DNA of 11,394 nucleotides from the IMG/VR virus record IMGVR_UViG_2585427657_000001, one strand, 5' to 3'. Made by a program: the position numbers and the translations under genes. The stretch comes from a virus. Its lineage: Duplodnaviria; Heunggongvirae; Uroviricota; Caudoviricetes. Shown one piece after another: positions 1 to 11,394 of the stretch. The first letter of the stretch is position 1. Each line of letters begins with the position of its first letter. The notes beneath the pieces are model-generated. The model was not told the DNA's origin, did no database searches, and was given only the letters and a program-made list of their open reading frames with translations.

Positions 1-228
1 ATGCGTGAAGTATGGACAAGCACAGCAGCGAACGAGGAAGGATTCGAGCCGGACGTAATAGAGGCGGCACTTGCCCACGTCGACACCAACGAAGTTAGAC
101 GGGCATACAACCGGAGCAACTACATAGAAAAACGCATCGTGCTGATGCGCTGGTGGGGCGAATTTGTCGAGGCTGCGGCGACGGGCGTAACCCTCGCCAG
201 TGGTAAAAGGGGTATCCGAGCCGTGTAG
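1..228 (+). CDS. int: P4-family tyrosine integrase, C-terminal fragment; the 5' part of the gene lies upstream of the window
   Basis: Translation ...DVIEAALAHVDTNEVRRAYNRSNYIEKRIVLMRWWGEF... resembles the conserved C-terminal catalytic region of P4/CP4-57-type integrases (LAH...VRxAYNR...Y motif). Frame is open to position 1 and stops at 226-228. Confidence 0.8.
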   Translation: MREVWTSTAANEEGFEPDVIEAALAHVDTNEVRRAYNRSNYIEKRIVLMRWWGEFVEAAATGVTLASGKRGIRAV

Positions 229-305
229 CTGTACAGAAAACCAGTAAAAACTACGAAAACCATGTAAAACCGTCGTATAATTGCATCAAATTTAACGACA
301 AGGCC

Positions 306-557
306 GTGAAACATGAAACCGTTAAGATGCAAAAAAATATCAGATGCAATTGCGACGGGCTGCAACTGGCCCTGATGGTTCAGCATGAATTTTGGTCAAC
401 CTACGATCCGGAGGACAGAACGACGGCCCCATCAAAAAAACAGGTAGTAGATTTTCTGGTATCCCGTGGCGCTTCCAGAAATCTGGCGGTAAGTATTGAT
501 AAGGTCGTACGTCCGGCATCTATGAAGATCGGAGGCAGGCCCAAAAAATGGCGGTAA
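306..557 (+). CDS. Hypothetical small protein (83 aa with GTG start at 306; alternative ATG at 327)
   Basis: ORF directly followed by a rho-independent terminator at 567-591. No recognisable motif and start codon uncertain. Confidence 0.3.
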   Translation: MKHETVKMQKNIRCNCDGLQLALMVQHEFWSTYDPEDRTTAPSKKQVVDFLVSRGASRNLAVSIDKVVRPASMKIGGRPKKWR

Positions 558-566
558 CAATCCTGG

Positions 567-591
567 AAGCGGCAGAAATGCCGCTTTTTTT
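567..591 (+). terminator. Rho-independent terminator
   Basis: 8-bp stem AAGCGGCA / TGCCGCTT with GAAA loop, followed by a T-run (TTTTTTT). Confidence 0.55.
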
Positions 592-620
592 ATAATTCCA
601 TTTCAAATCATCAATATAAA

Positions 621-720
621 AACGGTGTATACCGTTTAAAAACGGTGGGAACTGTTTTTACCCATATCCGATGATTTACCGTATTTGTCACCGGAATACA
701 CCGGATTCACAAGGTAAATC
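621..720. promoter_or_regulatory. Repeat-rich region upstream of alpA (candidate operator/promoter)
   Basis: AAACGGT-gtat-ACCGTTT hairpin-like inverted repeat (622-639); direct repeat AAAAACGGTG twice; tandem CACCGGA(A/T)T repeats (689-708); 8-bp inverted repeat GATTTACC (673-680) / GGTAAATC (713-720) ending 3 nt before the alpA start. Confidence 0.3.
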
Positions 721-723
721 ACG

Positions 724-930
724 ATGGAAGCAATCAGAAAAATTATCTTTCGCCAGGAAGTAAAAAAAATTATCCACATCAAGGCAGACAGCACGCTGCA
801 AAGCATGATCAACGCCGGAGAATTTCCGCAGGGTTTTCGCGTTGGTTTACGCCGTCGCGGATGGTATGAGGATGATGTGTTGGCCTGGCAGAAAGAACGC
901 GAACAGGAAGCACGCGGAACGGCTGCTTAA
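724..930 (+). CDS. alpA: AlpA-family DNA-binding regulator (prophage CP4-57 regulatory protein family; excisionase-like HTH)
   Basis: 68-aa product; segment ...STLQSMINAGEFPQGFRVGLRRRGWYEDDVLAWQ... fits the AlpA pattern (S-T-I-Y...G-x-F-P-x-P-x-K-L-G-x-R-x-V-x-W...E-I-x-x-W). Position right after int is typical of P4-like and PICI elements. Confidence 0.75.
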   Translation: MEAIRKIIFRQEVKKIIHIKADSTLQSMINAGEFPQGFRVGLRRRGWYEDDVLAWQKEREQEARGTAA

Positions 931-1114
931 CGGGTATCACAGATATGACAAACACGAAAAAAGCGGCCCCGATATGGAGCCGCCTTTCTGAACAATTAAC
1001 CCGCTGCGCCTTATGTGTATATGATCCCAAACATAAGCACGGGGATGATAGCCGCTATCAAAAAGTAACGGGTATTTTATCAAAAAAGTAACGGGCGGCT
1101 GGTGGGCAATGCAA

Positions 1115-1288
1115 TCAGTCTGGTTCAGTTCGTTGCCATACCTGCAATGAGCGCTTTTCCCTGTATTCTTTAAGGAATTGCTCAAGGGCAAAAGCACATG
1201 GCGCGAATCTTTCTGATTCATGCTCTATCTTTCTGCGCCGTCTTTTCCGTGCCGGTGATAATGTTTTGGTCAATTCTTTATCGGTCAT
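1115..1288 (-). CDS. Hypothetical small basic protein (57 aa, MTDKELTKTLSPARKRRRRK...)
   Basis: Minus-strand ORF about 55 bp downstream of the 1346-1651 regulator gene on the same strand, with an AGGA about 7 nt before the ATG at 1288. No homology recognised. Confidence 0.25.
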   Translation of the reverse strand: MTDKELTKTLSPARKRRRRKIEHESERFAPCAFALEQFLKEYREKRSLQVWQRTEPD

Positions 1289-1345
1289 TGTGTTGTCCTG
1301 CATAGCAATGCGCCGTAATACCTTACACCACGGCGCTGATGGTGA

Positions 1346-1651
1346 TTACTCTGGTTCTTTGGTCTTGCGGCGCTGGAGTTCTTCACGTGCGACAGTGACG
1401 AGCTGCCCGATCTCCTCGGCGGCTTTGATTCCGAGTTTTTCCACCTGCGCCAGTGCATCGTGCGAAGAAATCAGGGGGTTTTCTCCGCTTCCTTCTGCCT
1501 GGCGGCGGGCGATTTCACCGCGCATGGCGGTTACTATGAATCCGGCGTTGCTTTCACCGTCCAGTTTTACGGATTCCATGCCTTCAATAACATCATGCGG
1601 GATCCGAGCTGTCAGTGATTGTGATTTTGCGTTTTTTGAACCTGTAGCCAT
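1346..1651 (-). CDS. Small DNA-binding regulator, ribbon-helix-helix (Arc/MetJ-like) pattern at the N-terminus; candidate island repressor
   Basis: Start ATG at 1651 preceded by GAGAGGA (better than the upstream ATG at 1666). N-terminal SLTARIPHDVIEGMESVKLDGESNAGFIVTAMRGEIARR fits strand-helix-turn-helix of RHH proteins. Divergent from the small-ORF/primase operon. Confidence 0.55.
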   Translation of the reverse strand: MATGSKNAKSQSLTARIPHDVIEGMESVKLDGESNAGFIVTAMRGEIARRQAEGSGENPLISSHDALAQVEKLGIKAAEEIGQLVTVAREELQRRKTKEPE

Positions 1652-1672
1652 CTGTAATCCTCTCAATGAAAG

Positions 1673-1749
1673 TGTAAGACAATATACACATAAAAAGTCT
1701 TACATAAAAGCATTGACATGTAAGCCACCTATAAATAAAGTTACTTACA
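1673..1749. promoter_or_regulatory. Divergent promoter/operator region: two inverted-repeat pairs and a candidate sigma70 promoter
   Basis: Perfect 8-bp inverted repeat TGTAAGAC (1673-1680) / GTCTTACA (1697-1704) with 16-nt spacer; second pair TGTAAG (1719-1724) / CTTACA (1744-1749); TTGACA (1713-1718) -N17- TAAAGT (1736-1741) reading rightward and overlapping the second pair. Confidence 0.45.
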
Positions 1750-1847
1750 CCTTGTTAATGCAAGGTGCAGAAACGACGAAACCCCGCACTGTAGGAGCAG
1801 TAACGGGGCTTCTAACCACCAACGATAGCAAGATTATCGAGGCAGCT

Positions 1848-2048
1848 ATGAGAAATTATACCATACACCCGCAAGGGCGGGACTCGTACAACCTGAATAA
1901 ATACATCTGGCGTTTTATCGCCCTGAGCACGGCACAACCGCGCGTGATTACCATCGAGGCCACCAGCGAACAGGAAGCGCGTCAGCAATCTCCGGCTGGC
2001 TGCGTGATGGTATTTGCTGCCCGTATTCGTCAGGGGGTAGGCTTATGA
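1848..2048 (+). CDS. Hypothetical protein (66 aa), first gene of the small-ORF/primase operon
   Basis: ATG at 1848 with GAGG 6 nt upstream; stop overlaps the next start (ATGA at 2045-2048). The longer ORF 1266-2048 is antisense to the regulator gene in its 5' part and is not supported. Confidence 0.4.
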   Translation: MRNYTIHPQGRDSYNLNKYIWRFIALSTAQPRVITIEATSEQEARQQSPAGCVMVFAARIRQGVGL

Positions 2049-2275
2049 GCCAGGAAATCACACTACAACAGGCAGCAGAACGCGCCCACCAAATCGAAGT
2101 TATTTGCGCACTGGCAGAGGATTACCCTGGCATGATGACCGACAGCGAATCAGGGGCAATCATCGGCTTACTTAAACGCCTTAGCGGTGAGGTCTGCGTA
2201 TTCCTGAGCGATGAACAGGAAAGAAGAACGCTTATTTCTAACGAAAAAAAATGCGGAGGGGTACATGTGCAATAA
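2045..2275 (+). CDS. Hypothetical protein (76 aa)
   Basis: ATGA overlap with the upstream ORF; part of a chain of coupled small ORFs. No homology recognised. Confidence 0.5.
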   Translation: MSQEITLQQAAERAHQIEVICALAEDYPGMMTDSESGAIIGLLKRLSGEVCVFLSDEQERRTLISNEKKCGGVHVQ

Positions 2276-2486
2276 AACCACACCGGACGCAGCAGCCGCC
2301 GCGCTCACTACGCTGATGCACGCGCTTATCGATATTGAATGCACTGCAGAGCTTGCGCAGGGAGAAGAACAGAAAGACCGGACACAGTTCGCCCTGGAAT
2401 GTATCCGATACATCGCAACACGGTCGCTGAATGACGCTAAAAATATTCTTGTTGCTGATTGTGAAAATGGGGGGGGTTATGCGTGA
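2265..2486 (+). CDS. Hypothetical protein (73 aa from ATG 2265)
   Basis: GGAGGGG ending 3 nt before ATG 2265; overlaps neighbours by 11 and 8 nt. The ORF track starts at 2211, but 2265 has the better ribosome-binding site. Confidence 0.45.
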   Translation: MCNKTTPDAAAAALTTLMHALIDIECTAELAQGEEQKDRTQFALECIRYIATRSLNDAKNILVADCENGGGYA

Positions 2487-2700
2487 TGATCGTTTTAATT
2501 CCCTGAAACAGGAATTTTCCGGCGTTCCTGATGATGCGGCTGATGCGCTTTCGTCAATGCCAGAACTTATTAGAGCGGCTTTTTTCTTACTTTCCACGAG
2601 AGAATATAAATCAACGGGGCTTGATGTACTGAATATCGCCGCCGATTATGCTGATTTCGTGACAGAGGTTATTTTAAGAAAAACGACGGACGGGGATTAA
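2479..2700 (+). CDS. Hypothetical protein (73 aa from ATG 2479)
   Basis: G-rich Shine-Dalgarno before ATG 2479; overlaps the upstream ORF stop. The ORF track start at 2431 would overlap the previous gene extensively. Confidence 0.45.
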   Translation: MRDDRFNSLKQEFSGVPDDAADALSSMPELIRAAFFLLSTREYKSTGLDVLNIAADYADFVTEVILRKTTDGD

Positions 2701-2701
2701 T

Positions 2702-2935
2702 ATGCGTGATATTTACCACGAAACAATAGACCGCGCATTTCTTGCACTTTCTCACAGTGAAAACATGCTGGAAATATTGCGCATATGGCTTGAAACACTT
2801 GGCGACAATGAACGCGACAAACAAAAATCAAGAATTGCCACGGCATTAATAACGCTTCTTGAGCCTGTAATAATGGAACTGCAAGAAATAGATCTATTGC
2901 ACGATAGATATAAAGAACAGCACACCGGAGAATAA
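2702..2935 (+). CDS. Hypothetical protein (77 aa)
   Basis: Starts 2 nt after the upstream stop, with GGGGA upstream. No homology recognised. Confidence 0.5.
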   Translation: MRDIYHETIDRAFLALSHSENMLEILRIWLETLGDNERDKQKSRIATALITLLEPVIMELQEIDLLHDRYKEQHTGE

Positions 2936-2940
2936 AAATA

Positions 2941-3240
2941 ATGAAACTTAAATATTCTGGCTTAACTGCCAGTGGCAACACTCACCCTAAATTTACGCGC
3001 GGCGATATTTACCGCGACCAGTACGGCGGCACGGTAATGATTAAGGGCGTGGCGGGACGGTGCGTAACTTACCGCCGTGAAGGTTACGAATATGATTGCG
3101 TGATGCCTGTTTATCAGTTCCGGCGTGATTTTTCTCTGGTACAGACCGCGCCGCATAACGTGCCCACCAGCAACGCCAGGGCACGGGCAAACATCCAGAA
3201 GCTGAAAACCATGATTAACGGATTCAGGGGTAAAAAATGA
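2941..3240 (+). CDS. Hypothetical protein (99 aa), translationally coupled to the primase
   Basis: GGAGAA Shine-Dalgarno before ATG 2941; stop overlaps the primase start (ATGA at 3237-3240). Confidence 0.55.
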   Translation: MKLKYSGLTASGNTHPKFTRGDIYRDQYGGTVMIKGVAGRCVTYRREGYEYDCVMPVYQFRRDFSLVQTAPHNVPTSNARARANIQKLKTMINGFRGKK

Positions 3241-4991
3241 AACTGGCACCGAACGTAAAACAGCAGTCACGCGGCATAAAACACAAAGGAACAGAAGTCA
3301 TTATTTTTGCGGGTAGTGATGCCTGGGCACACGCGAAACAATGGCAGGAACATGATGCGCGTATGGCCGGAGATAATGAGCCTCCTGTGTGGCTTGGGGA
3401 GCAGCAGTTATCAGAACTGGATAAGCTGCAAATTGTGCCGGAAGGCAGAAAATCCGTGCGCATATTCAGGGCCGGATATCTTGCGCCAGTAATGATAAAG
3501 GCGATTGGTCAGAAGCTGGCGGCGGCAGGCGTACAGGATGCAAATTTTTACCCTGATGGTATGCACGGTCAGAAGGTGGAGAACTGGCGCGAATATCTGG
3601 CCCGTGAGCGCCAGAATCTTTCTGATGGTCTGGTCATTGAGCTTCCGGTAAAGCAAAAGGCGCAACTTTCGCAGATGGCGGACAGTGAGCGCGCGCAGCT
3701 GCTTGCCGATCGCTTTGATGGCGTTTGCGTACATCCTGAAAGTGAAATCGTTCACGTATGGCGCGGCGGGGTATGGTGTCCGGTCAGCACAATGGAACTT
3801 AGCCGCGAAATGGTGGCGATCTATTCAGAGCACAGGGCCACTTTCAGCAAGCGCGTAATCAATAACGCCGTGGAAGCGTTAAAAGTTATTGCCGAACCAA
3901 TGGGCGAGCCGTCCGGCGATTTGCTGCCGTTCGCCAATGGTGCGCTTGACCTGAAAACGGGGGAATTTTCCCCGCACACGCCGGAGAACTGGATCACCAC
4001 GCACAACGGCATTGAGTACACGCCACCAGCACCAGGGGAGAACATCCGCGATAACGCGCCAAACTTTCATAAATGGCTTGAGCACGCAGCCGGAAAAGAC
4101 CCGCGCAAGATGATGCGTATATGTGCCGCGCTGTACATGATTATGGCGAACCGGTACGACTGGCAGATGTTTATTGAGGCCACCGGAGACGGCGGGAGCG
4201 GTAAAAGTACATTCACACACATAGCCAGCCTTCTGGCAGGGAAACAAAACACGGTAAGCGCTGAAATGACATCGCTTGATGATGCTGGTGGGCGTGCGCA
4301 GGTTGTCGGGAGTCGTCTTATCGTCCTGGCAGACCAGCCGAAATATACAGGCGAAGGAACGGGCATCAAGAAAATCACGGGCGGCGACCCCGTGGAAATT
4401 AACCCGAAATATGAAAAGCGTTTTACGGCGGTAATCAGGGCGGTGGTGCTGGCAACCAATAACAATCCGATGATATTCACCGAACGGGCCGGAGGTGTGG
4501 CACGTCGTCGGGTGATATTCCGGTTCGATAACATCGTAAGCGAGGCAGAAAAAGACAGGGAGCTACCGGAAAAGATCGCGGCTGAAATCCCTGTCATTAT
4601 CCGCCGCTTGCTGGCGAACTTTGCCGACCCTGAAAAGGCACGGGCTTTACTCATTGAACAGCGTGACGGTGATGAAGCACTGGCAATAAAGCAACAGACG
4701 GATCCGGTTATTGAGTTTTGCCAGTTCCTGAATTTTCTGGAGGAAGCACGCGGCCTGATGATGGGCGGCGGTGGCGATTCAGTGAAGTACACGACCAGAA
4801 ACAGCCTTTACCGCGTCTATCTGGCGTTTATGGCGTACGCAGGCAGGAGCAAACCGCTAAACGTAAATGACTTTGGCAAGGCTATGAAGCCAGCCGCGAA
4901 AGTTTACGGACATGAATATATTACGCGGAAAGTTAAAGGAGTAACGCAGACTAACGCAATAACAACAGACGATTGCGACGCGTTTTTATAA
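3237..4991 (+). CDS. Replication initiator: primase/helicase of the phage-plasmid P4 (alpha) / PICI Pri-Rep type
   Basis: 584-aa protein with Walker A P-loop GDGGSGKST and a following hydrophobic-Asp segment (SRLIVLADQP) typical of D5/P4-alpha-like primase-helicases. Sits between alpA and an iteron array as in satellite replication modules. Confidence 0.8.
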   Translation: MKLAPNVKQQSRGIKHKGTEVIIFAGSDAWAHAKQWQEHDARMAGDNEPPVWLGEQQLSELDKLQIVPEGRKSVRIFRAGYLAPVMIKAIGQKLAAAGVQDANFYPDGMHGQKVENWREYLARERQNLSDGLVIELPVKQKAQLSQMADSERAQLLADRFDGVCVHPESEIVHVWRGGVWCPVSTMELSREMVAIYSEHRATFSKRVINNAVEALKVIAEPMGEPSGDLLPFANGALDLKTGEFSPHTPENWITTHNGIEYTPPAPGENIRDNAPNFHKWLEHAAGKDPRKMMRICAALYMIMANRYDWQMFIEATGDGGSGKSTFTHIASLLAGKQNTVSAEMTSLDDAGGRAQVVGSRLIVLADQPKYTGEGTGIKKITGGDPVEINPKYEKRFTAVIRAVVLATNNNPMIFTERAGGVARRRVIFRFDNIVSEAEKDRELPEKIAAEIPVIIRRLLANFADPEKARALLIEQRDGDEALAIKQQTDPVIEFCQFLNFLEEARGLMMGGGGDSVKYTTRNSLYRVYLAFMAYAGRSKPLNVNDFGKAMKPAAKVYGHEYITRKVKGVTQTNAITTDDCDAFL

Positions 4992-5004
4992 TTTGTTGCA
5001 ATGG

Positions 5005-5232
5005 CTGTCTACCCTGTCTACCTGAGTAAAGAAAAATACATTTAATTCAGTGCATTAAGTTAGGTAGATAGCCTTTTTTTACTGTCTACCCACTATCTAC
5101 CCTCTCTACCTGATTTTACCTGAATCAGACAGGGAGGTAGACACGGGGTAGATAGTGGATAAAAGCACTCTACCCCGCTGAAAGCCGCGCCATTACTGGC
5201 ATGAGGGCCACTAAGGTAGATAAGGTAGACAA
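5005..5232. repeat. Iteron array; candidate replication origin
   Basis: Eleven copies of a 9-mer with core TCTACC (CTGTCTACC, CTATCTACC, CTCTCTACC and complements GGTAGATAG, GGTAGACAC, GGTAGACAA) in both orientations at 5005-5013, 5014-5022, 5063-5071, 5082-5090, 5093-5101, 5102-5110, 5136-5144, 5147-5155, 5166-5174, 5215-5223, 5224-5232, with an AT-rich stretch at 5023-5060, directly downstream of the primase gene. Confidence 0.7.
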
Positions 5233-5279
5233 GGGGAGGCACAACTCAAAACTTTTTAAACGAGGGGGTAAAAATAAAT

Positions 5280-5558
5280 ATGCACACTTCAGGGAAATTT
5301 AATAAATCACTCAAAAAACGCAGAGACAGAACAGAACCGAAATATCGCGCGTTAGACATGACAGAGCACGCTTTAAAGGTGGCAATCAGAACGATAGACC
5401 GACACGTAGGGGAAGGATACGCGAAGGAACATCCCGACCTGATAAGCGCATTCATGACCACAGCAGCGGCAAACTTTGCCACGCTGACAGAACGGGAGAT
5501 TGCCGAAGCGGAACAGGTAACAACCATCAACGTTAAAACCGGAGAGGTGGAATCATGA
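5280..5558 (+). CDS. Hypothetical protein (92 aa)
   Basis: Strong Shine-Dalgarno GAGGGGG before ATG 5280; stop overlaps the next start (ATGA at 5555-5558). No homology recognised. Confidence 0.55.
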   Translation: MHTSGKFNKSLKKRRDRTEPKYRALDMTEHALKVAIRTIDRHVGEGYAKEHPDLISAFMTTAAANFATLTEREIAEAEQVTTINVKTGEVES

Positions 5559-5997
5559 CAGCACAGATAGCCGCTTACGGGCGGCTGGTGGACGACCCGC
5601 AGGTAAAACAGACCAGCAAGGGCACACCGATGACGCTGGCGCGTATGGCGGTCCCCCTTCCGTGCAGCCAGGCAGATGACGGAACGGCGACGATGTGGTT
5701 ATCCGTCCTGGCATTTGGCAGACAGGCCGAAGCACTGGAAAGGCACCGCAAGGGTGAACTCCTGAGCGTGGCGGGCATTTGGTAAGCAGGCCGGGTAACA
5801 TGCAGATCAGCCAGTGGACTGGGCAGAACGGAGAAACGCGGCAGGGCTGGCAGGTTATCGCAGACAGTGTAATCAGTGCGCGAACGGCGCGACTGGGCGG
5901 CAAAAAAGGTCAACAGGGCCAGGCTACTGACGCGCTGAACAGGGCAAAACAACAGGCGGGGAATGATGATCCGTACGGGGATAACATACCGTTTTAA
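5555..5997 (+). pseudogene. ssb: Single-stranded DNA-binding protein (SSB)-like gene interrupted by a frameshift (frame change near 5777-5782)
   Basis: N-terminal ORF (5555-5785) ...TMWLSVLAFGRQAEALERHRKGELLSVAG resembles the SSB OB-fold (E. coli ...[28 protein letters not shown]). The downstream frame (ATG 5800 to 5997) continues with MQISQWTGQNGE... and ends DDPYGDNIPF, like the SSB acidic C-terminal tip (DDDIPF). Adding one T to the TTT run at 5778-5780 restores a continuous reading frame. Confidence 0.5.
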
Positions 5998-6012
5998 GCG
6001 ACGAGTGACAGA

Positions 6013-6035
6013 AGCCGGAGCAATCCGGCTTTTTT
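6013..6035 (+). terminator. Rho-independent terminator after the SSB-like gene
   Basis: Stem AGCCGGA / TCCGGCT with GCAA loop followed by TTTTTT. Confidence 0.6.
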
Positions 6036-6085
6036 ACGGGTCCTCCTGGCGGGGTGGGCCTGAACACGGGGCGGGAGGCGCGGAA
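6036..6085 (+). other. Degenerate cos-like remnant (third copy of the cos-associated repeat)
   Basis: GGGTCCTCCTGGCGGGGTGGGCC...ACGGGGCGGGAGGCGCGG parallels the 8502-8551 segment (GGGTCCTTCCCGGAATATGGACCC GTTACG GGGCGGCGACCT CGCGG), but the cosN 12-mer is mutated (GGGCGGGAGGCG). Confidence 0.4.
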
Positions 6086-6210
6086 AAAAGCGCATTTTTG
6101 TGATTTTATCGTCATCATCATCATGAGCGTAATTTATTGTTTTTAATTGTTTTGATGCAAAAAAGATGATGGTTGTGGTTAATTTTCGTTCGACATCTTT
6201 GCAGGCAGAT

Positions 6211-6275
6211 AGCCGGAGCAATCCGGCTTTTTTAAAAAAAGCCCGATAAGGTCAGAGGTGGCTTATCGGGCTTTT
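6211..6275. terminator. Tandem terminators: a second copy of the AGCCGGAGCAATCCGGCT hairpin, then a hairpin flanked by an A-run and a T-run
   Basis: 6211-6233 is identical to the 6013-6035 hairpin plus T-run; 6234-6275 is AAAAAAA GCCCGATAAG ... CTTATCGGGC TTTT. Confidence 0.55.
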
Positions 6276-6352
6276 GCATATGAGGCTTTTTGGTGCACTG
6301 ACACACATGATCGGGATAATCATTTCATAATTTGCAACGCAACTCAACATCA

Positions 6353-6401
6353 TTGCACAAAATGCAATCATGATTATAATCAGAGCTGGATGAACATCCA
6401 G
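6353..6401 (+). promoter_or_regulatory. Candidate promoter of the capsid operon with overlapping dyad operators
   Basis: TTGCAC (6353-6358) -N16- TATAAT (6375-6380); inverted repeat ATTGCA-caaaa-TGCAAT (6352-6368) over the -35; 16-bp near-palindrome CTGGATG-AA-CATCCAG (6386-6401) at the predicted transcript start; AAGAGGAA ribosome-binding site before ATG 6437. Confidence 0.5.
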
Positions 6402-6436
6402 TTATGATTTTTTAAGTCAAAGAGGAATTTCTTACT

Positions 6437-6643
6437 ATGGCTGAAGAGAAAAAAGGCGGTGTTTCGGTGTACATAAGCCCCGACATCGTGAAGGCGCTCA
6501 AGGAACGCCACCAGCAGAACGTAAAAGCAGGCATTGCGGCAGGACTTGATCCGCTGGCGATGGTTGAGCCGTCAACAGGCTGGCAGGTACGCTCCTATTT
6601 ACGCGCGGCGCTGGGCATAAATCAGACTCATGGGGGTGAATAA
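6437..6643 (+). CDS. Hypothetical protein (68 aa), translationally coupled to the major capsid gene
   Basis: Good Shine-Dalgarno; TAATG stop/start overlap with the capsid gene at 6641-6645. N-terminal VSVYISPDIVKALKERH could be a ribbon-helix-helix motif (weak). Confidence 0.5.
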   Translation: MAEEKKGGVSVYISPDIVKALKERHQQNVKAGIAAGLDPLAMVEPSTGWQVRSYLRAALGINQTHGGE

Positions 6644-7698
6644 TGGCAGTCAAAGCAATGGCACTTAACACACACCAGCTTTTCGCGTACCTGAATCGCG
6701 AGGATATTGCGGAATTTAAATTTAGTCCGCTGTTTACCGCGCTGTTTTTCCCGAACGTGGCGACATTCAACACGCAAAACATCATGCTGGATACCCTGGA
6801 CATTGAAGAAGTCACCATGTCGGCGTTTTGTTCGCCTATGGTGGGTAGCCAGGTTCAGCGCGATAAAGGGTACGAAACCAGCACGATTAAACCTGGCTAC
6901 ATGAAGCCAAAGCACGAAATCGATCCAACGAAAACCATCATGCGCATGGCTGGAGAAGATCCGGCACAGCTTAACGACCCTACCTATCGCCGTATGCGCC
7001 TGATTACTGGCAATATGCGCCGCCAGATAAACGCCATAAAAGCGCGCGTGGAATGGCTGGCGGTAAATGCGGTAACGACCGGAAAAAACATCATTGAGGG
7101 CGAAGGCATAGAGCGCTATGAAATCGACTGGAAGATACCGGAAAAAAACATCATAGAGCAGGCCGACGGGAAAAAATGGTCAGAGCAGGACAAAGAAACC
7201 CACGATCCAATCTATGATATCGAACTATACGCCGATCAGGCTGGTTGCCCCGCAAACGTCATGATTATGGGCGTTGAGGTATGGCGAACGTTACGCAGCT
7301 TTAAAAAATTCCGTGAGCTGTACGATCTTTCCCGTGGTTCAGAGTCCGCCGCAGAGCTGGCCTGTAAAAACCTGGGCGAAGTGGTGAGCTTTAAAGGCTA
7401 TCTGGGCGATATTGCCCTTATCGTCTATTCCGGCAAATACACTGACAGCGACGGCACAGAAAAATATTTCCTTGATCCTGATTTGCTGGTCCTGGGCAAC
7501 ACCAACAACAAAGGGCTGGTGGCCTATGGTGCGATTATGGATCAGGAAGCGGTAAGAACAGGCGCAACGCAAAACATGTACTACCCGAAAAACTGGATTG
7601 AGGACGGCGATCCGGCGATTGAGTACGTGCAGACGCACAGCGCACCGCAGCCGGTTCCGGCAGATATTCGCAAATTTGTTACCGTCAAAATTGCTTAA
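6643..7698 (+). CDS. Major capsid protein, phage lambda gpE family
   Basis: 351 aa; multiple blocks match lambda gpE as recalled: FKFSPLFTALFF (lambda FKFDPLFLRLFF), KPGYMKPKHEIDP (TPGYVKPKHEVNP), DPTYRRMRLITGNMR (DPAYRRRRIIMQNMR), WSEQDKETHDPIYDIELYA (WSKRDKSTYDPTDDIEAYA), LGDIALIVYSGKY (YGDVAIVVYSGQY), YYPKNWIEDGDPA (RYPKNWVTTGDPA), C-terminal FVTVKIA (FVSVQLA). Confidence 0.9.
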   Translation: MAVKAMALNTHQLFAYLNREDIAEFKFSPLFTALFFPNVATFNTQNIMLDTLDIEEVTMSAFCSPMVGSQVQRDKGYETSTIKPGYMKPKHEIDPTKTIMRMAGEDPAQLNDPTYRRMRLITGNMRRQINAIKARVEWLAVNAVTTGKNIIEGEGIERYEIDWKIPEKNIIEQADGKKWSEQDKETHDPIYDIELYADQAGCPANVMIMGVEVWRTLRSFKKFRELYDLSRGSESAAELACKNLGEVVSFKGYLGDIALIVYSGKYTDSDGTEKYFLDPDLLVLGNTNNKGLVAYGAIMDQEAVRTGATQNMYYPKNWIEDGDPAIEYVQTHSAPQPVPADIRKFVTVKIA

Positions 7699-7709
7699 CG
7701 GGGGATTCT

Positions 7710-8045
7710 ATGGACACTCCATACATTGAGTTATTTGCAGGCAGTCAGCAGGTATCCACGACGCTGGTACATTTTGCCGCTGATGCTGGCGTTATTCAGG
7801 AATTTACCCCGCTGATGCTGGCGGACAATGGCGAGTTTAAGCCGTGGGATGGTCAGGAATCTGGCAAGGCTGTTTATCTGACTTCGTACCTCGTGGACAC
7901 GTCAAAGCAGAAATCAGCACAGTGTTACAAGACGGGGATATTCAATATTGCCGCCGTTAACTGGCCTGAGAGCGTCGACACCGATGCGAAAAAATGCGCC
8001 GCCTTTGCGGGTTCTGGCGTATCCGTTCAGCCGCTGGCCCGATAA
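7710..8045 (+). CDS. Head decoration protein, phage lambda gpD family
   Basis: 111 aa; TPLMLADNGEFKPWDG (lambda TPLMLDTSSRKLVAWDG), CYKTGIF...NWPES (FYKSGTF...LWPEA), KKCAAFAGSGVSV (KKRTAFAGTAISI). Size matches gpD (110 aa). Confidence 0.8.
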   Translation: MDTPYIELFAGSQQVSTTLVHFAADAGVIQEFTPLMLADNGEFKPWDGQESGKAVYLTSYLVDTSKQKSAQCYKTGIFNIAAVNWPESVDTDAKKCAAFAGSGVSVQPLAR

Positions 8046-8057
8046 GCAGGGGGAACG

Positions 8058-8471
8058 ATGGCAACGAATGAAAGCATCATGGCGCTACCGCTGGCGAGTA
8101 AATTTAAAGCCGAAGCGCGGGCAATGGCTGACAGAGGTTTATCAACCTACGAGGCCGTATATCAACTCAACAAACTGGAAGAGCAGGACAAGCCGCGCGC
8201 TGATGCGATTATGGCGCTTCATGAGCATAAAGACTATCAGCCGCTGTTGCGTGCAATGGCAAACGTGCCTTGTATCGATGTTGATACGGCTAAAAACATC
8301 CTGAACATGACCATAGAGCAGGAACGCCCGAAGGTTGCACCAGAGCTTACCGCAGCCTTTGAAAACTTTATGGACATGCACAGCCCACAAACCGTATCAG
8401 CTGGCATGGCATACGATGGCAGAAACCCAGGCGATGACGGCGACATCGATCGCATACTGAAAACCATCTGA
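8058..8471 (+). CDS. Hypothetical protein (137 aa), last gene of the capsid operon, directly upstream of cos
   Basis: ORF with AGGGGGA upstream, followed by a terminator at 8478-8500. No motif recognised; position suggests a packaging or morphogenesis accessory role. Confidence 0.55.
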   Translation: MATNESIMALPLASKFKAEARAMADRGLSTYEAVYQLNKLEEQDKPRADAIMALHEHKDYQPLLRAMANVPCIDVDTAKNILNMTIEQERPKVAPELTAAFENFMDMHSPQTVSAGMAYDGRNPGDDGDIDRILKTI

Positions 8472-8477
8472 GACAAG

Positions 8478-8500
8478 GCCGGAGAAATCCGGCTTTTTTT
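8478..8500 (+). terminator. Rho-independent terminator after the capsid operon
   Basis: Stem GCCGGA / TCCGGC with GAAA loop and a 7-T run; variant of the hairpin at 6013-6035 and 6211-6233. Confidence 0.6.
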
Positions 8501-8501
8501 A

Positions 8502-8564
8502 GGGTCCTTCCCGGAATATGGACCCGTTACGGGGCGGCGACCTCGCGGTTTTTCGCTATTTATG
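8502..8564 (+). other. cos site 1: palindrome GGGTCC-N12-GGACCC, then lambda-type cosN (GGGCGGCGACCT at 8532-8543) and lambda-like proximal flank
   Basis: Sequence GTTACG GGGCGGCGACCT CGCGGTTTTTCGCTATTTATGA matches the lambda cohesive-end region as recalled (GTTACG GGGCGGCGACCT CGCGGGTTTTCGCTATTTATGAAAATTTTCCGG). No lambda-like R-site motifs are recognisable downstream. Confidence 0.7.
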
Positions 8565-8637
8565 AGCTTTTTCAGGGGGGTGGTGGTGGTTTTGTTGTTT
8601 GCTCTATCTTTATGAATGAAAAGGGAAAGATGCAAAC

Positions 8638-8675
8638 AATACACCAACCTGAAGCAGTAATTAAGTTGGTGTATT
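8638..8675. promoter_or_regulatory. Perfect 11-bp inverted repeat AATACACCAAC / GTTGGTGTATT (16-nt spacer) between cosN and the terS start; candidate cosB recognition element or operator
   Basis: Seen directly: 8638-8648 and 8665-8675 are exact reverse complements, ending 1 nt before ATG 8677. Confidence 0.4.
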
Positions 8676-8676
8676 A

Positions 8677-9219
8677 ATGAAATCGCACCTGATGAACAAA
8701 AAAAACATGGCGAAAAGCTGCCGTGTAAGTGCGACAGCGTTCGACAAGTGGGGAGTGACTCCCGTTGAACGTAAAGGCCGTGAGGCGTTTTACGATGTTG
8801 CCAGCGTGATAGACAATAGGGTTAACAATGCAATTAGCCAGCTTACAAACGACAAAGGCGATATTGATGATGATGAACTCTTACGAGTCAGGATCAGATT
8901 ACTGACAGCACAGGCGGAGGCGCAGGAACTTAAAAACGAGCGCGATCGCGGTGACGTGATTGATACTGAGTTTTGCCTGTACGCGCTTTCAAAGCTGGCG
9001 AGTCAGATTTCATCAATCATGGACAGCCTCCCGCTTACTATGCAAAGGAGCTTCCCACAGATTACCCCCGCCATGCTGGATAGGCTTAAAAGGGAAGTGG
9101 TTAAAGCCTGTAATGCCAGTGCCAGAGTTGCCGACAACCTCCCACAGATACTGGCTGATTACTTGAAAGAAACAACCGGAAACGTACCGGAAAAGTTGCT
9201 ACAGAAGAAAGGCGAGTAA
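8677..9219 (+). CDS. Small terminase subunit, lambda Nu1 family (start may be ATG 8692, giving MNKK...)
   Basis: LTAQAEAQELKNERDRGDVIDTEFCLYALSKLASQISSIMDSLPLTMQRSFPQI matches lambda Nu1 LTRAQADAQELKNARDSAEVVETAFCTFVLSRIAGEIASILDGLPLSVQRRFPEL; C-terminal LADYLKETTG matches LLSEYIEQSG; N-terminal MNKK matches Nu1 MEVNKK. Gene sits immediately downstream of a cosN, as in lambda. Confidence 0.85.
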   Translation: MKSHLMNKKNMAKSCRVSATAFDKWGVTPVERKGREAFYDVASVIDNRVNNAISQLTNDKGDIDDDELLRVRIRLLTAQAEAQELKNERDRGDVIDTEFCLYALSKLASQISSIMDSLPLTMQRSFPQITPAMLDRLKREVVKACNASARVADNLPQILADYLKETTGNVPEKLLQKKGE

Positions 9220-9239
9220 CAGACGCGCAATTATTGAAC

Positions 9240-9441
9240 AAAACTGAGAAACGACATGAAAGCGTCATAAATCGCCATTTTAGATGATTACCGTGTCGTT
9301 TCTTTTTATTGTGTATCTATTTAAAAACAAATAGTTATGTTCGAGAAGTACCGACATGCTTTTTCCAGAAAAATTTTCATAAACAGATAAAACCCGCGAG
9401 GTCGCCGCCCCGTAACGGGTCCATAATTCCAGGAAGGACCC
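9240..9441 (-). other. cos site 2 (inverted): lambda-type cosN (minus strand of 9399-9410) with lambda-like cosB (R3/I1/R2/R1-like segments) and upstream GGGTCC/GGACCC palindrome
   Basis: Minus strand reads GGGTCCTTCCTGGAATTATGGACCC GTTACG GGGCGGCGACCT CGCGGGTTTTATCTGTTTATGAAAATTTTTCTGG ...ACTTCTCGAACATAACTATTTGTTTTTAAATAGATACAC...AAAGAAACGACACGG...CATGTCGTTTCTCAG, which parallels the recalled lambda left end (TTCTTCGTCATAACTTAATGTTTTTATTTAAAATACC, AAAGGAAACGACAGG, CTGTCGTTTCCTTTCTC). Confidence 0.65.
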
Positions 9442-9475
9442 GACGACACCAGACAATCAGAACGATGGGTGCACA

Positions 9476-9757
9476 ATGACAGAAGCCGAAATACTGGGAT
9501 TAATCCGCCGTGCTGGTGGAATCAGCCAGCAGACTGACGAACAGGCCACGCAGCCGGACAGCGTGACAGCCGAAAATTATGCGCGTGTTGTTGCTGAGGT
9601 GATGCGCCGTGATGGTATCCAGCTTAATGATGTGGATATGCGCAACATACGGATCCGCGTTCTTGAAATGCTGGCCTACAATCGCCGCGTGGCACTGTAT
9701 CGGGAAACGGAGAAAATTACATACCACTGGAAGAAGCCGGAGCGGTTGCGGCGGTAA
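9476..9757 (+). CDS. Hypothetical protein (93 aa)
   Basis: ORF between cos 2 and the att repeats with protein-like composition. Weak ribosome-binding site; no homology recognised. Confidence 0.4.
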   Translation: MTEAEILGLIRRAGGISQQTDEQATQPDSVTAENYARVVAEVMRRDGIQLNDVDMRNIRIRVLEMLAYNRRVALYRETEKITYHWKKPERLRR

Positions 9758-9758
9758 C

Positions 9759-9927
9759 TGGTTGATATTTTCGAAATTCGCCAGCGGCGAACATCGGGGA
9801 AACCAGCCTAACCCGTTGATATTTTCGGGAACCTCAAATTGAGGAGGTCGGAAACATAACCCGTCATATTCTGGATGCTGATAATTACCACGCAGCCCAT
9901 TAAGGCCTAACCCGTTGATTCTTTCGG
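9759..9927 (+). repeat. Direct repeats of a roughly 20-bp motif (CCTAACCCGTTGAT(A/T)(T/C)TTTCGG) at the island/chromosome junction; candidate attR and integrase-binding repeats
   Basis: Copies at 9760-9773 (partial), 9807-9828, 9856-9874 (degenerate) and 9906-9927; the 3' part of the motif (TCTTTCGG) recurs inside the phoQ 3' end at 9941-9948. Confidence 0.5.
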
Positions 9928-9933
9928 ACATAT

Positions 9934-11394
9934 TTATTCATCTTTCGGTGCAGAATGCTGGCGACCAAAAATCACTTCCATCCGCGCACCGCCCAGCATG
10001 CTCTCTCCGGCGACGATTTTACCCTCATATTGCTCGGTGATTTCGCGGGCTACCGCCAGCCCCACACCTTGCCCAGGGCGTAAAGTATCAACCCGTTGAC
10101 CACGGTCGAAAATGACCTCTCGCTTGCTTAATGGAATACCGGGGCCATCATCCTCGACCACAATATAGAGATGCTCGTCGGTTTGCCTTGCAGAAATTTC
10201 GACAAATTCGAGGCAATATTTACAGGCATTATCCAGCACATTACCCATCACCTCGACAAAATCGTTCTGCTCACCAACAAAGCTGATCTCTGGCGAAATA
10301 TCGAGAGAGATATTGACCCCTTTGCGTTGATACACTTTGTTCAGCGCCGAGGTGAGATTGTCCAACAGTGGGGCGACCGGATGCAGCTCGCGGCTAAGCA
10401 ATGTCCCGCCGCGCATACTGGCACGATGCAGGTAGTAGCCAATTTGCTGTGAAATGCGGCTGATTTGCTCCAGCATTACCGGCTCAGCATCACTGACGCT
10501 CATCTTCTCACTACGCAGAGAACGCAGCGTACTTTGCAGCACCGCCAGTGGCGTTTTCAGACTATGGGTCAGGTCGGTGAGCGTCGTACGATATTTGTCG
10601 TAACGTTCGCGTTCACTTTTTAACAGTCGGTTCAGGTTTCGTACCAGACTGGTCAGTTCTCGCGTTGTGGCTGGATTGAGCAATTCACGGTTATGTTCTT
10701 CCAGTTCGCGGACTTCTTTTGCCAGGGCTTCGATGGGGCGTAAACTCCACCAGGCGGCGACCCACAGCAGCGGGATCACTAACAGCAGATTGGCTGAGAG
10801 CACATAGATAAACCAGCTCCAGACCATATAGGAACTTTTTAGCTCCACCGGAATGGTATCCACCACCACAATGGTTAACTTTGGCATCCGCGATGTTGCC
10901 GGGTAGACGTTTACCGCCACCGAGTGGGTCATCTCCGCGTCGTCATCATCTTCCCGCACTTCCTGCAACTGTTGCTGTATCGAATGATCTCCACTCAGCA
11001 AGAGGCTGGTATCGTTAACATCCGCTTCAATTTCATGAAAACCATTCGATTTCAGCCAGTCAGGCTGGATCATCTTCATCAGCCAGGGCACGTCACGTTG
11101 CGCCCATAAAAGCTGCCCGTTCTCATCATAAATTAGTGTCATCGTGGGGCTTTGCTTGTCGATATTTTCGGGTAACTCGACATGCAACTTATTGTTTTCC
11201 CACTTCGCAAGGGTATAGAACAGATTGCTCTCGCCACGTAACAGCCGAAACGTGGTTTTATCGAAACTGACGCTATAACCGATCAGCGCAACCATTCCGT
11301 AGGCAAGCGAAAGCACCAATACTACTGCTGCCGTTGCTAACAGAAAACGTACCCGCAGCGAGAGCGGGAAAAAAAGATGCAGTAATTTTTTCAT
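9934..11394 (-). CDS. phoQ: Sensor histidine kinase PhoQ (PhoP/PhoQ two-component system), complete
   Basis: 486-aa product recognised as E. coli-type PhoQ ([68 protein letters not shown]...; periplasmic acidic patch EDDDDAEM; H-box [14 protein letters not shown]; G-box DDGPGI). Start codon is the last three bases of the window; phoP would lie beyond the right edge. Confidence 0.97.

Follow-up and report, generated by a model that had tools for sequence, protein, structure and literature searches.

What are the repeats that line the right edge of the island next to phoQ in the IMG/VR virus record IMGVR_UViG_2585427657_000001: traces of integration, or part of the island itself? The stretch analyzed here, referred to as the window, comprises 11,394 nucleotides and contains an island that ends at position 9928, immediately 3' of phoQ (9934–11394), as had been proposed in an initial annotation of this DNA. 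The same annotation interpreted four repeats in front of phoQ as copies of an att core that overlaps the 3' end of the gene together with integrase-binding sites, or as scars of serial integration. A comparison with related islands points to a different origin. The repeats are probably units of a mosaic array that belongs to phage satellites of the EcCICFT073 family, and the island in the window is probably a truncated, integrase-dead copy of the type present in strain Nissle 1917.

The repeats and their distribution among related islands

An ungapped repeat finder detected three copies of a 23-mer in the window, located at 9752–9774 (74%), 9806–9828 (the reference), and 9905–9927 (91%), with start-to-start spacings of 54 and 99 bp. 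A degenerate 19-nt pattern (AACCCGTTGATWYTTTCGG) with up to 3 mismatches has 3 matches, compared to 0.01 expected from shuffles. A further copy at 9855–9875 (CATAACCCGTCATATTCTGGA) occupies the expected position at a distance of about 50 bp; it agrees by eye at ~16 of 22 positions, requires a gap of 1 nt, and was not reported by the repeat tools, nor was the array reported by Tandem Repeats Finder. The initial count of four copies spaced about 50 bp apart was therefore overstated: two copies are strong, one is weaker, and the fourth is degenerate. The units are arranged as follows:

9752–9805 (plus strand): array unit 1, with the motif CGGTAACTGGTTGATATTTTCGA at 9752–9774, which contains the stop codon TAA (9755–9757) of an open reading frame (ORF) for a 93-aa protein, and the palindrome TTCGCCagcGGCGAA at 9777–9791
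9806–9854 (plus strand): array unit 2, with the motif GCCTAACCCGTTGATATTTTCGG at 9806–9828 and the palindrome CCTCAaatTGAGG at 9832–9844
9855–9904 (plus strand): array unit 3, decayed, with CATAACCCGTCATATTCTGGA at 9855–9875 and a degenerate palindrome where relatives have TGGTCATAATGACCA
9905–9927 (plus strand): array unit 4, truncated, with the motif GCCTAACCCGTTGATTCTTTCGG only; the palindrome and everything beyond are missing

After unit 4, the window reads ACATATTTATTCATCTTTCGG and continues into phoQ, which is encoded on the minus strand. All four repeats are present with identical bases in the island of Nissle 1917, up to ...GATTCTTTCGGA, after which that island proceeds with AACAGCCATTGG...; past the motif of unit 4, Nissle runs on with ...TCTTTCGGAAACAGCCATTGGCG... 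and CFT073 with ...GATTCTTCCACAATCCCCCATTGGGGG....

The same repeat copies are present in islands inserted at tRNA-Pro (L003, the island of Nissle 1917), cspD/clpS (L093, L096, and L097), and phoQ (CFT073), and variant units occur in islands at phoQ (ERL05-0623), tqsA/mdtJ (L009), tRNA-Ile (L008), and lambda gene B (L010). The islands at cspD/clpS possess the same array and an identical 93-aa protein, yet have another integrase. L003 and L093 have a common right end over the first ~410 bp after the ORF and split only where the arm-type sites begin, so that the array belongs to the conserved late module and not to the exchangeable integration module.

A survey of 61 + 10 related loci yielded 55 distinct downstream sequences, here counted as arrays, with 0–7 units per array at distances of 48–54 bp and spacing peaks at 48, 52, and 54 bp. 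In each unit, a motif of ~20 nt, (C/G)(G/C)TAAC-N3-YTGAT-ATTYYCG, precedes a perfect palindrome at a constant distance; the palindrome has 5–11 bp per arm around a center of 2–4 nt and is usually followed by GTCGG or GGCTG. The first unit always overlaps the stop codon of the last late gene, which encodes the 93-aa protein, and later units often repeat the last codons of this ORF (CGGCGGTAA). Beyond the array, intact islands contain a Chi site, next an intrinsic terminator, and after these the integrase-specific P arm and the att core. Units were encountered only behind the gene for the 93-aa protein and on one strand (~200 kb scanned).

The palindromes vary between units through compensatory changes. 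The 38 distinct unit variants comprise 31 distinct palindromes (e.g., CCTCAattTGAGG, GCGCAaaaaTGCGC, CCCCCattGGGGG, TTCGCCagcGGCGAA, and TTCCACAgacTGTGGAA), and a perfect stem of at least 5 bp is present at the same offset in 79% of the 38 distinct units but in only 6% of shuffles. Among 16 in-register units, both-side changes occur at 5 of 6 stem positions, and one-sided changes (G-U type) at none. The stem cells of these units are paired in 85% of the cases, compared to 62.5% in shuffles (0 of 500 shuffles reach 85%) and 30–50% in versions slid by 1–3 columns. No match was obtained when a long array (L006) was compared with 50,697 phage records, the array region has no match to an Rfam family at E ≤ 1, and a limited literature search found no description of the array.

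Several relatives deviate from this pattern. No array units are present in L011, L018–L020, L029, and L100, where the P arm is instead preceded by four GTGAC motifs at intervals (GTGACGGAGAGTGACAACCAGTGACACGCCGTGAC), possibly a further protein-binding array. In L010 (NZ_CP176484.1, locus 1782–2700), the relative is inserted in the portal gene (the lambda B homolog) of a lambdoid prophage and has an array of three units with different palindromes; helper-embedded satellites of this kind have been described (PMC10111431). L098 (GCA_016653155.1, WNIN01000001.1, locus 14–10960) combines a 409-aa integrase of the CFT073 type and a 62-aa AlpA on its left side with an arm of the tRNA-Pro type and the narP flank on its right side, and looks like the product of homologous recombination between two resident satellites, which would imply a chromosomal rearrangement.

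The attachment site and the island junctions at phoQ

If the repeats belong to the island, which sequence serves as the att core at phoQ? A comparison of attL and attR of the islands in CFT073 and ERL05-0623 with the empty sites of K-12 and Nissle identifies the core of genuine phoQ-site islands as GGACATATTT, which is present in both ends of these two islands and once in the empty site. The island of ERL05-0623, a capsid-forming phage-inducible chromosomal island (PICI) of 15 kb, is unrelated to that of CFT073 but has the same attL and attR. A search of the literature did not find a description of the phoQ att site. The sequences compared are:

CFT073 attL: ...GTGAAGTATGGACATATTTTATCAATT...
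CFT073 attR: ...GTGATAAAAGGACATATTTATTCATC...
K-12 empty site: ...GTATGGGCATATTTATTCATC...
Nissle empty site: ...GTATGGACATATTTATTCATC...
Window, 9926–9935: the GGACATATTT core, with a 2-nt overlap with the phoQ stop codon that leaves the phoQ ORF intact

The genuine core thus touches the stop codon of phoQ, which agrees with the initial proposal of a core overlapping the 3' end of the gene, but it is GGACATATTT and not TCTTTCGG, the sequence that had been put forward; the cores thus map elsewhere, an outcome that the initial annotation had itself named as a refutation. TCTTTCGG occurs exactly twice in the window, at 9920–9927 and, as had been noted, in the last codons of phoQ at 9941–9948 (...PKD; C-terminus PKDE*). 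It is present also in repeat 4 of the tRNA-Pro island of Nissle and in phoQ of the island-free K-12. Because the Nissle island has the same sequence at tRNA-Pro, TCTTTCGG is an internal part of unit 4 that is unrelated to phoQ, and its presence in both is a coincidence. A matching copy of the core upstream of int had been suggested as a check, but both the repeat motif and TCTTTCGG are absent from positions 1–40 of the window and from attL of CFT073 and ERL05-0623. The repeats are indeed absent from the empty phoQ loci of K-12 and Nissle, although TCTTTCGG itself is present there in K-12.

The arm-type sites are also distinct from the repeats. Islands at phoQ have a doubled GGTGTAGTTAAT in both arms; its distance from the core is ~75 bp in the P arm and ~130 bp on the side upstream of int. 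The paired GGTGTAGTTAAT motif forms the arm repeats of the phoQ, tqsA, and cspD types, whereas islands of the tRNA-Pro type have other arm repeats (two copies of TAGTTATACG). These arm repeats change with the type of integrase, as arm-type sites should, whereas the motif of the array units does not differ between integrase types and is not part of the swapped module, which speaks against the proposed role of the repeats in integrase binding. A doubled arm motif has been reported for a related clade of integrases (PMC10111431), in agreement with the GGTGTAGTTAAT pairs. Both GGTGTAGTTAAT and TAGTTATACG are absent from the window. A separate site with the consensus of the integration host factor (IHF; AATCAATGGNTTG) is located ~40 bp from the core in P arms of the phoQ and tqsA types.

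GGACATATTT is found once in the window, and only GGACA is common to both junctions. The features at the left end are:

1–18: chromosomal DNA from between roxA and phoQ, the left half of the attB region, with GGACA at its end
1–228 (plus strand): chimeric ORF of 75 aa, consisting of a chromosomal ATG and 5 codons followed by the last ~70 codons of an integrase

Positions 1–18 agree at 18 of 18 nucleotides with the empty sites in Nissle and CFT073 (...ATGCGTGAAGTATGGACA|TATTT). At the left junction (GTATGGACA|AGCACAGC), these 18 nt of chromosome are joined in frame to codon 345 of an integrase of the tRNA-Pro type, not of the phoQ type. Positions 19–1060 are 100% identical to positions 3451–4492 of the Nissle island (L003), where int occupies 2419–3660, so that the first 344 codons are missing. 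The matches of the 75-aa ORF to PHROG integrases are confined to the C-terminus, and the exact chimeric protein is not on record in a large gene index. At the right junction (...GATTCTTTCGGA|CATATTT), the middle of unit 4 is joined to the chromosomal core, with GGA common to both partners; homology to island-free genomes resumes at 9926–9929 (alignment from 9926). The insert is therefore flanked by GGACA on both sides (14–18 and 9926–9930), and the empty site of Nissle is split after GGACA.

Relative to the Nissle island, the window lacks ~430 bp of the right end. What is missing corresponds to one contiguous piece of the circular form, ~1.7 kb in length, which spans the remainder of the array, Chi, the terminator, the P and P' arms with the core between them, and codons 1–344 of int. 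Because the integrase is cut to its last ~70 codons and the right arm is missing, both junctions are of a non-att type, and regular att x att recombination did not bring the island to this site. The window contains no attL arm, no P arm, and only a truncated int, whereas excision requires attL and attR cores and an integrase; a copy without integrase and att arms is predicted to be unable to excise and should be fixed in place. Conservative recombination and microhomology deletion were considered as origins of the junctions and rejected, as no scheme reproduces the extra CA.

For annotation, this means that repeats at the edge of an island are not automatically att sites: at this locus, another 10-mer serves as the true core, while the repeats accompany the island regardless of the integrase it encodes.

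Alternative explanations and possible roles of the array

An att-related origin of the repeats is hardly credible. Their position at the island edge, their absence from island-free phoQ loci, and the recurrence of TCTTTCGG 14 bp inside phoQ would fit copies of a core with arm-type repeats, or scars of serial integration at phoQ. However, the same repeats, including TCTTTCGG in unit 4, are found at tRNA-Pro and cspD/clpS, which are unrelated sites, in islands with different integrases, so that they cannot be att copies, arm sites, or scars. Moreover, two independent phoQ-site islands share GGACATATTT as their core, the real arm sites (pairs of GGTGTAGTTAAT or TAGTTATACG) are absent from the window, and in CFT073 the repeats lie ~380–550 bp from the core and unit 4 does not contain TCGG. 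It is also unlikely, if less so, that the junctions are non-biological, i.e., the result of misassembly or of an engineered or edited sequence. A search of 5,426 complete E. coli genomes for a 31-mer spanning the right junction found none that has it, with 378 extra bp in all of the best matches, and the 31-mer is also absent from the species-representative genomes of GTDB and from JGI metagenomes. Moreover, the left junction was found nowhere else, and the window differs from the Nissle island by insertions of 36 nt (1061–1096), 1 nt (5222), 20 nt (5772–5791), and 24 nt (6211–6234) and by clustered changes in both cos copies (8500–8522 and 9393). The 36-nt and 20-nt insertions and the cos variants are present in none of ~100 related loci, and the 24-nt insertion duplicates a hairpin (AGCCGGAGCAATCCGGCTTTTTTA) located at another place in the islands of relatives (in Nissle, as a 29-nt match ~200 bp upstream). 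By contrast, the identical right junction is present in an independent record, IMGVR_UViG_2872693482_000001 (L101/L017), which covers positions 1346–11394 of the window and is 100% Nissle-like up to this junction; compared to it (from 1346 on), the window has insertions of 1, 20, and 24 nt as well as the changes in both cos copies. In addition, a 5-bp overlap would be too short to generate a chimera in a de Bruijn graph.

If the array is a genuine component of the island, what might it do? A role at the RNA level is possible, though rather unlikely. The array would then be the 3' untranslated tail of the late operon, with hairpins that block 3' exonucleases or give rise to small RNAs, similar to REP (repetitive extragenic palindromic) elements. 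Such a role would agree with its location on the coding strand, after the last stop codon and ahead of an intrinsic terminator (AAAAACCACGAATATGGGGTTTTTG, at ~+318 in Nissle), and with the maintenance of the hairpins by compensatory changes. However, one-sided intermediates of the G-U type are lacking among the in-register units, and many dyads have centers of 0–2 nt, which cannot be closed as RNA hairpins. The strictly Watson-Crick palindromes would fit a DNA dyad better than an element of RNA. There is also no strand asymmetry (the plus strand is more stable in 22 of 38 arrays, with a mean difference of −2.7 kcal/mol), the array of the window shows no excess folding stability relative to shuffles (z = −0.67), no Rfam family matches, and the conserved 20-nt motif would be left unexplained. 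An array without any function of its own, formed as a by-product of repeated recombination or duplication at the end of the late module, is less likely still. It would account for the high mosaicism, with 0–7 units per island and none in some, and for units that copy the 3' end or last codons of the ORF (CGGCGGTAA), such as GACGGCGGTAACT in L039/L040, or the stutter in L078, but such a process would preserve neither a perfect palindrome at a fixed offset through 31 sequences nor a motif in one orientation at one locus only. There is only a slim chance that the units bind an island protein, either the 93-aa protein or the Nu1-like TerS/Rpp, and form a centromere-like or packaging-accessory array. 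The array and the gene for the 93-aa protein always occur together, the first unit overlaps the stop codon of the gene, and plasmid partition loci (e.g., parC/ParR and sopC/SopB) typically have direct repeats arrayed beside a small gene. However, the 93-aa protein has no recognizable DNA-binding domain (its model has three helices and a pLDDT of 69), the array faces cosQ and is separated by more than 350 bp from the nearer cosN, while both cosB sides face terS, and the palindromes are too diverse for a single sequence-specific dimer.

The leading, although tentative, guess is that the motifs represent IHF sites on the bottom strand and that the array may form a spacer of phased, protein-bent DNA between the packaging module and attP. 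The IHF consensus WATCAANNNNTTR has 4 matches in the window (0.59 expected), three of which are located in the repeats, all on the minus strand (9755–9767, 9809–9821, and 9908–9920). On the bottom strand, units 1, 2, and 4 read TATCAACCAGTTA, TATCAACGGGTTA, and AATCAACGGGTTA, which are exact matches to WATCAANNNNTTR, and an A/T tract (AAAATA or AAGA) is present 5' of each IHF core. The differences between units 1 and 2 are mainly at N positions of the consensus. A spacing of ~5 helical turns between units would place the bends in phase. At least one perfect IHF match is present in 41 of the 55 distinct arrays. The fourth match in the window is in phoQ (10086–10099, TATCAACCCGTTG) and contains a 10-mer (AACCCGTTGA) common to units 2 and 4; because the same 10-mer is present in phoQ of K-12, this is a coincidence of a core gene.

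Several candidates for the array were ruled out: R-sites of cosB, by the wrong side of cos and by distance; P4-like crr or ori iterons, by a sequence that differs from the replication repeats of the island (5005–5234); integron attC sites, by the lack of an inverse partner to the RYYYAAC that is present; Ter/Tus sites, by the lack of the core GTTG; and intrinsic terminators, by the lack of a U tract on either strand.

A number of observations weigh against the interpretation of the locus favored here, i.e., an IHF-related array in a truncated copy of a Nissle-type island. A perfect IHF consensus is lacking in 14 of the 55 distinct arrays, and 7 arrays have no unit at all, so that either the element is dispensable or IHF is not its reader. 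Many units read CTGAT, CTGAG, or CTGAA where the consensus has TTGAT. Because TAA and TGA are fixed in the regular expression used to collect the units, the conservation at these positions is partly circular. Lastly, the left junction was seen in this window only, with no further occurrence in IMG/VR, and the unusual insertions and cos changes of the window may reflect an edited or misassembled source.

A broader proposal is more speculative than the IHF assignment. The array may constitute an apparently undescribed cis element private to this satellite family, in which phased IHF-like sites are each combined with a strictly Watson-Crick but freely varying palindrome that would be recognized by a structure-specific reader, as a cruciform or single-strand hairpin, during replication, packaging, or the exchange of modules. 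Independently of this, the window may represent an integrase-less satellite captured at the attB of another satellite via the 5-bp GGACA. If the array is functional, it would add a new cis element to the well-studied EcCICFT073 family, and capture via GGACA, if true, would be one way for satellites to become permanent residents of the chromosome.

Gene content and relation to known systems

Positions 19–9928 of the window (plus strand) are 99.4–100% identical to positions 3451–13279 of the Nissle 1917 island at tRNA-Pro and form the body of an EcCICFT073-like, cos-type PICI of the Nissle 1917 type. In Nissle and many relatives, this tRNA-Pro island is placed between yejM and narP. EcCICFT073-like cos PICIs were recognized by a size of ~10–15 kb, an integrase at one end, a primase with ori repeats, cos site(s), and the lack of tail and lysis genes. 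The window contains the primase, the ori repeats, and two copies of cos, with the integrase present only as a remnant, and its packaging and particle genes are limited to those for capsid, decoration protein, and TerS. The DNA identity to the islands of CFT073 and Nissle is 95–100%. The main features are:

3237–4991: D5-type primase
5005–5234: short tandem repeats CTGTCTACC, ACTATCTACCC, AGACACGGAGGT, and TAAGGTAGA, directly after the primase gene
6643–7698: lambda E-like capsid protein
7710–8045: lambda D-like decoration protein
8530–8541 (plus strand): cosN of the first cos copy (GGGCGGCGACCT), from the alignment of the two inverted cos copies
8677–9219: Nu1-like TerS, 180 aa
9399–9410 (minus strand): cosN of the second, inverted cos copy
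9476–9757 (plus strand): last late gene, 93-aa protein (phrog_1561, function unassigned)
9934–11394 (minus strand): phoQ, intact ORF of 486 aa, stop codon at 9934–9936
149, 1098, 4284, 5584, 7515, and 9512 (plus strand); 1960, 3164, 4023, and 6508 (minus strand): Chi sites

The tandem repeats at 5005–5234 are the expected replication origin of a PICI; an Rfam scan of the whole window returned only weak matches to miRNA models in these repeats, which are attributable to chance. The 93-aa protein has no match in Pfam or among PDB sequences and belongs to a narrow family (41 representatives among clusters at 50% identity) that is covered only by the PHROG family of unassigned function. Its AlphaFold2 model (three helices) was judged too weak for a fold search. 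A search with the protein returned 10 places, none of them at phoQ. A scan for promoters and terminators between 9200 and 10100 detected no promoter and two weak terminator-like matches, which correspond to cosN and the end of the ORF. The phoQ gene of the window is 100% identical to those of Nissle, ATCC 25922, ABU 83972, and several assemblies of CFT073. The phoQ site of Nissle is empty, whereas in CFT073 another member of the family occupies precisely the roxA-phoQ interval.

The gene encoding TerS is flanked by the two inverted cos copies (regions 8470–8600 and 9360–9475), which share ~70 bp (a cosQ-like sequence and cosN), diverge on the cosB side, and match cos1/cos2 of EcCICFT073. The presence of two cos sites and RppA in EcCICFT073 has been documented (Fillol-Salom et al. 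2018, PMC6092414; 2019, PMC6739421). With two cos sites, a capsid gene, and a TerS gene near phoPQ, the copy in the window could still interfere with helper phages or be packaged by them. Chi (GCTGGTGG) occurs 10 times in the window (149–9519), always within the island and never in phoQ; 0.33 occurrences are expected from shuffles. The chromosomal average of E. coli would predict roughly 2 Chi sites in DNA of this size. The intact island of Nissle has 13 Chi sites, and such an excess could shield linear or rolling-circle DNA of the satellite from RecBCD.

Taken as a whole, the island itself is, judged by its sequence, a member of the known EcCICFT073-like PICI family, in the form of a truncated remnant. 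It shares with EcCICFT073, the Gram-negative prototype of cos-type PICIs from E. coli CFT073, the roxA/phoQ site, the gene order, the two inverted cos sites, the 93-aa last gene, and units 1–4, with a DNA identity of 95–96% over most of the interior. By contrast, the island of CFT073 has an intact integrase of 409 aa, attL and attR with GGACATATTT, and arm-type sites, is longer by 377 bp in the interval from unit 4 to the core, and encodes RppA (144 aa) at the position where the window has the Nu1-like TerS (180 aa); the integrase remnant of the window is of the tRNA-Pro type. The PICIs at tRNA-Pro of Nissle 1917 and ATCC 25922 share all four units up to ...TCTTTCGGA with the window. However, the Nissle PICI is intact, with an integrase of 413 aa, a right end that extends ~430 bp further (remainder of the array, Chi, terminator, and TAGTTATACG), and an attR derived from the 3' end of tRNA-Pro; it occupies another locus (yejM-narP region) and does not have the 36-, 1-, 20-, and 24-nt insertions and the cos changes of the window.

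The closest analogs of the array are found among IHF-associated elements. As in lambda-type attP (H1, H2, and H') and cosB (I1) sites, three units match WATCAANNNNTTR with a 5' A/T tract, and the units are located in non-coding DNA between the packaging module and attP. However, they lie 380–600 bp from the core in intact islands, i.e., outside a normal intasome, and on the cosQ side of the nearer cos, and each is paired with a palindrome, with many deviating from the consensus. In BIME-1 (bacterial interspersed mosaic elements) and RIP (repetitive IHF-binding palindromic) elements of E. coli, REP palindromic units flank an IHF site. The array resembles them as a mosaic, extragenic element at the 3' end of an operon that combines palindromes with an IHF-consensus motif in varying copy number, but its units are direct tandem repeats instead of alternating inverted units, and its palindromes (13–15 bp) are much shorter than REP units. 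Moreover, the array has no sequence similarity to REP and is confined to one position in one family of mobile elements. By sequence and arrangement, it is thus a member of neither group, with the IHF sites of attP and cos and the BIME-1/RIP elements being its closest analogs only.

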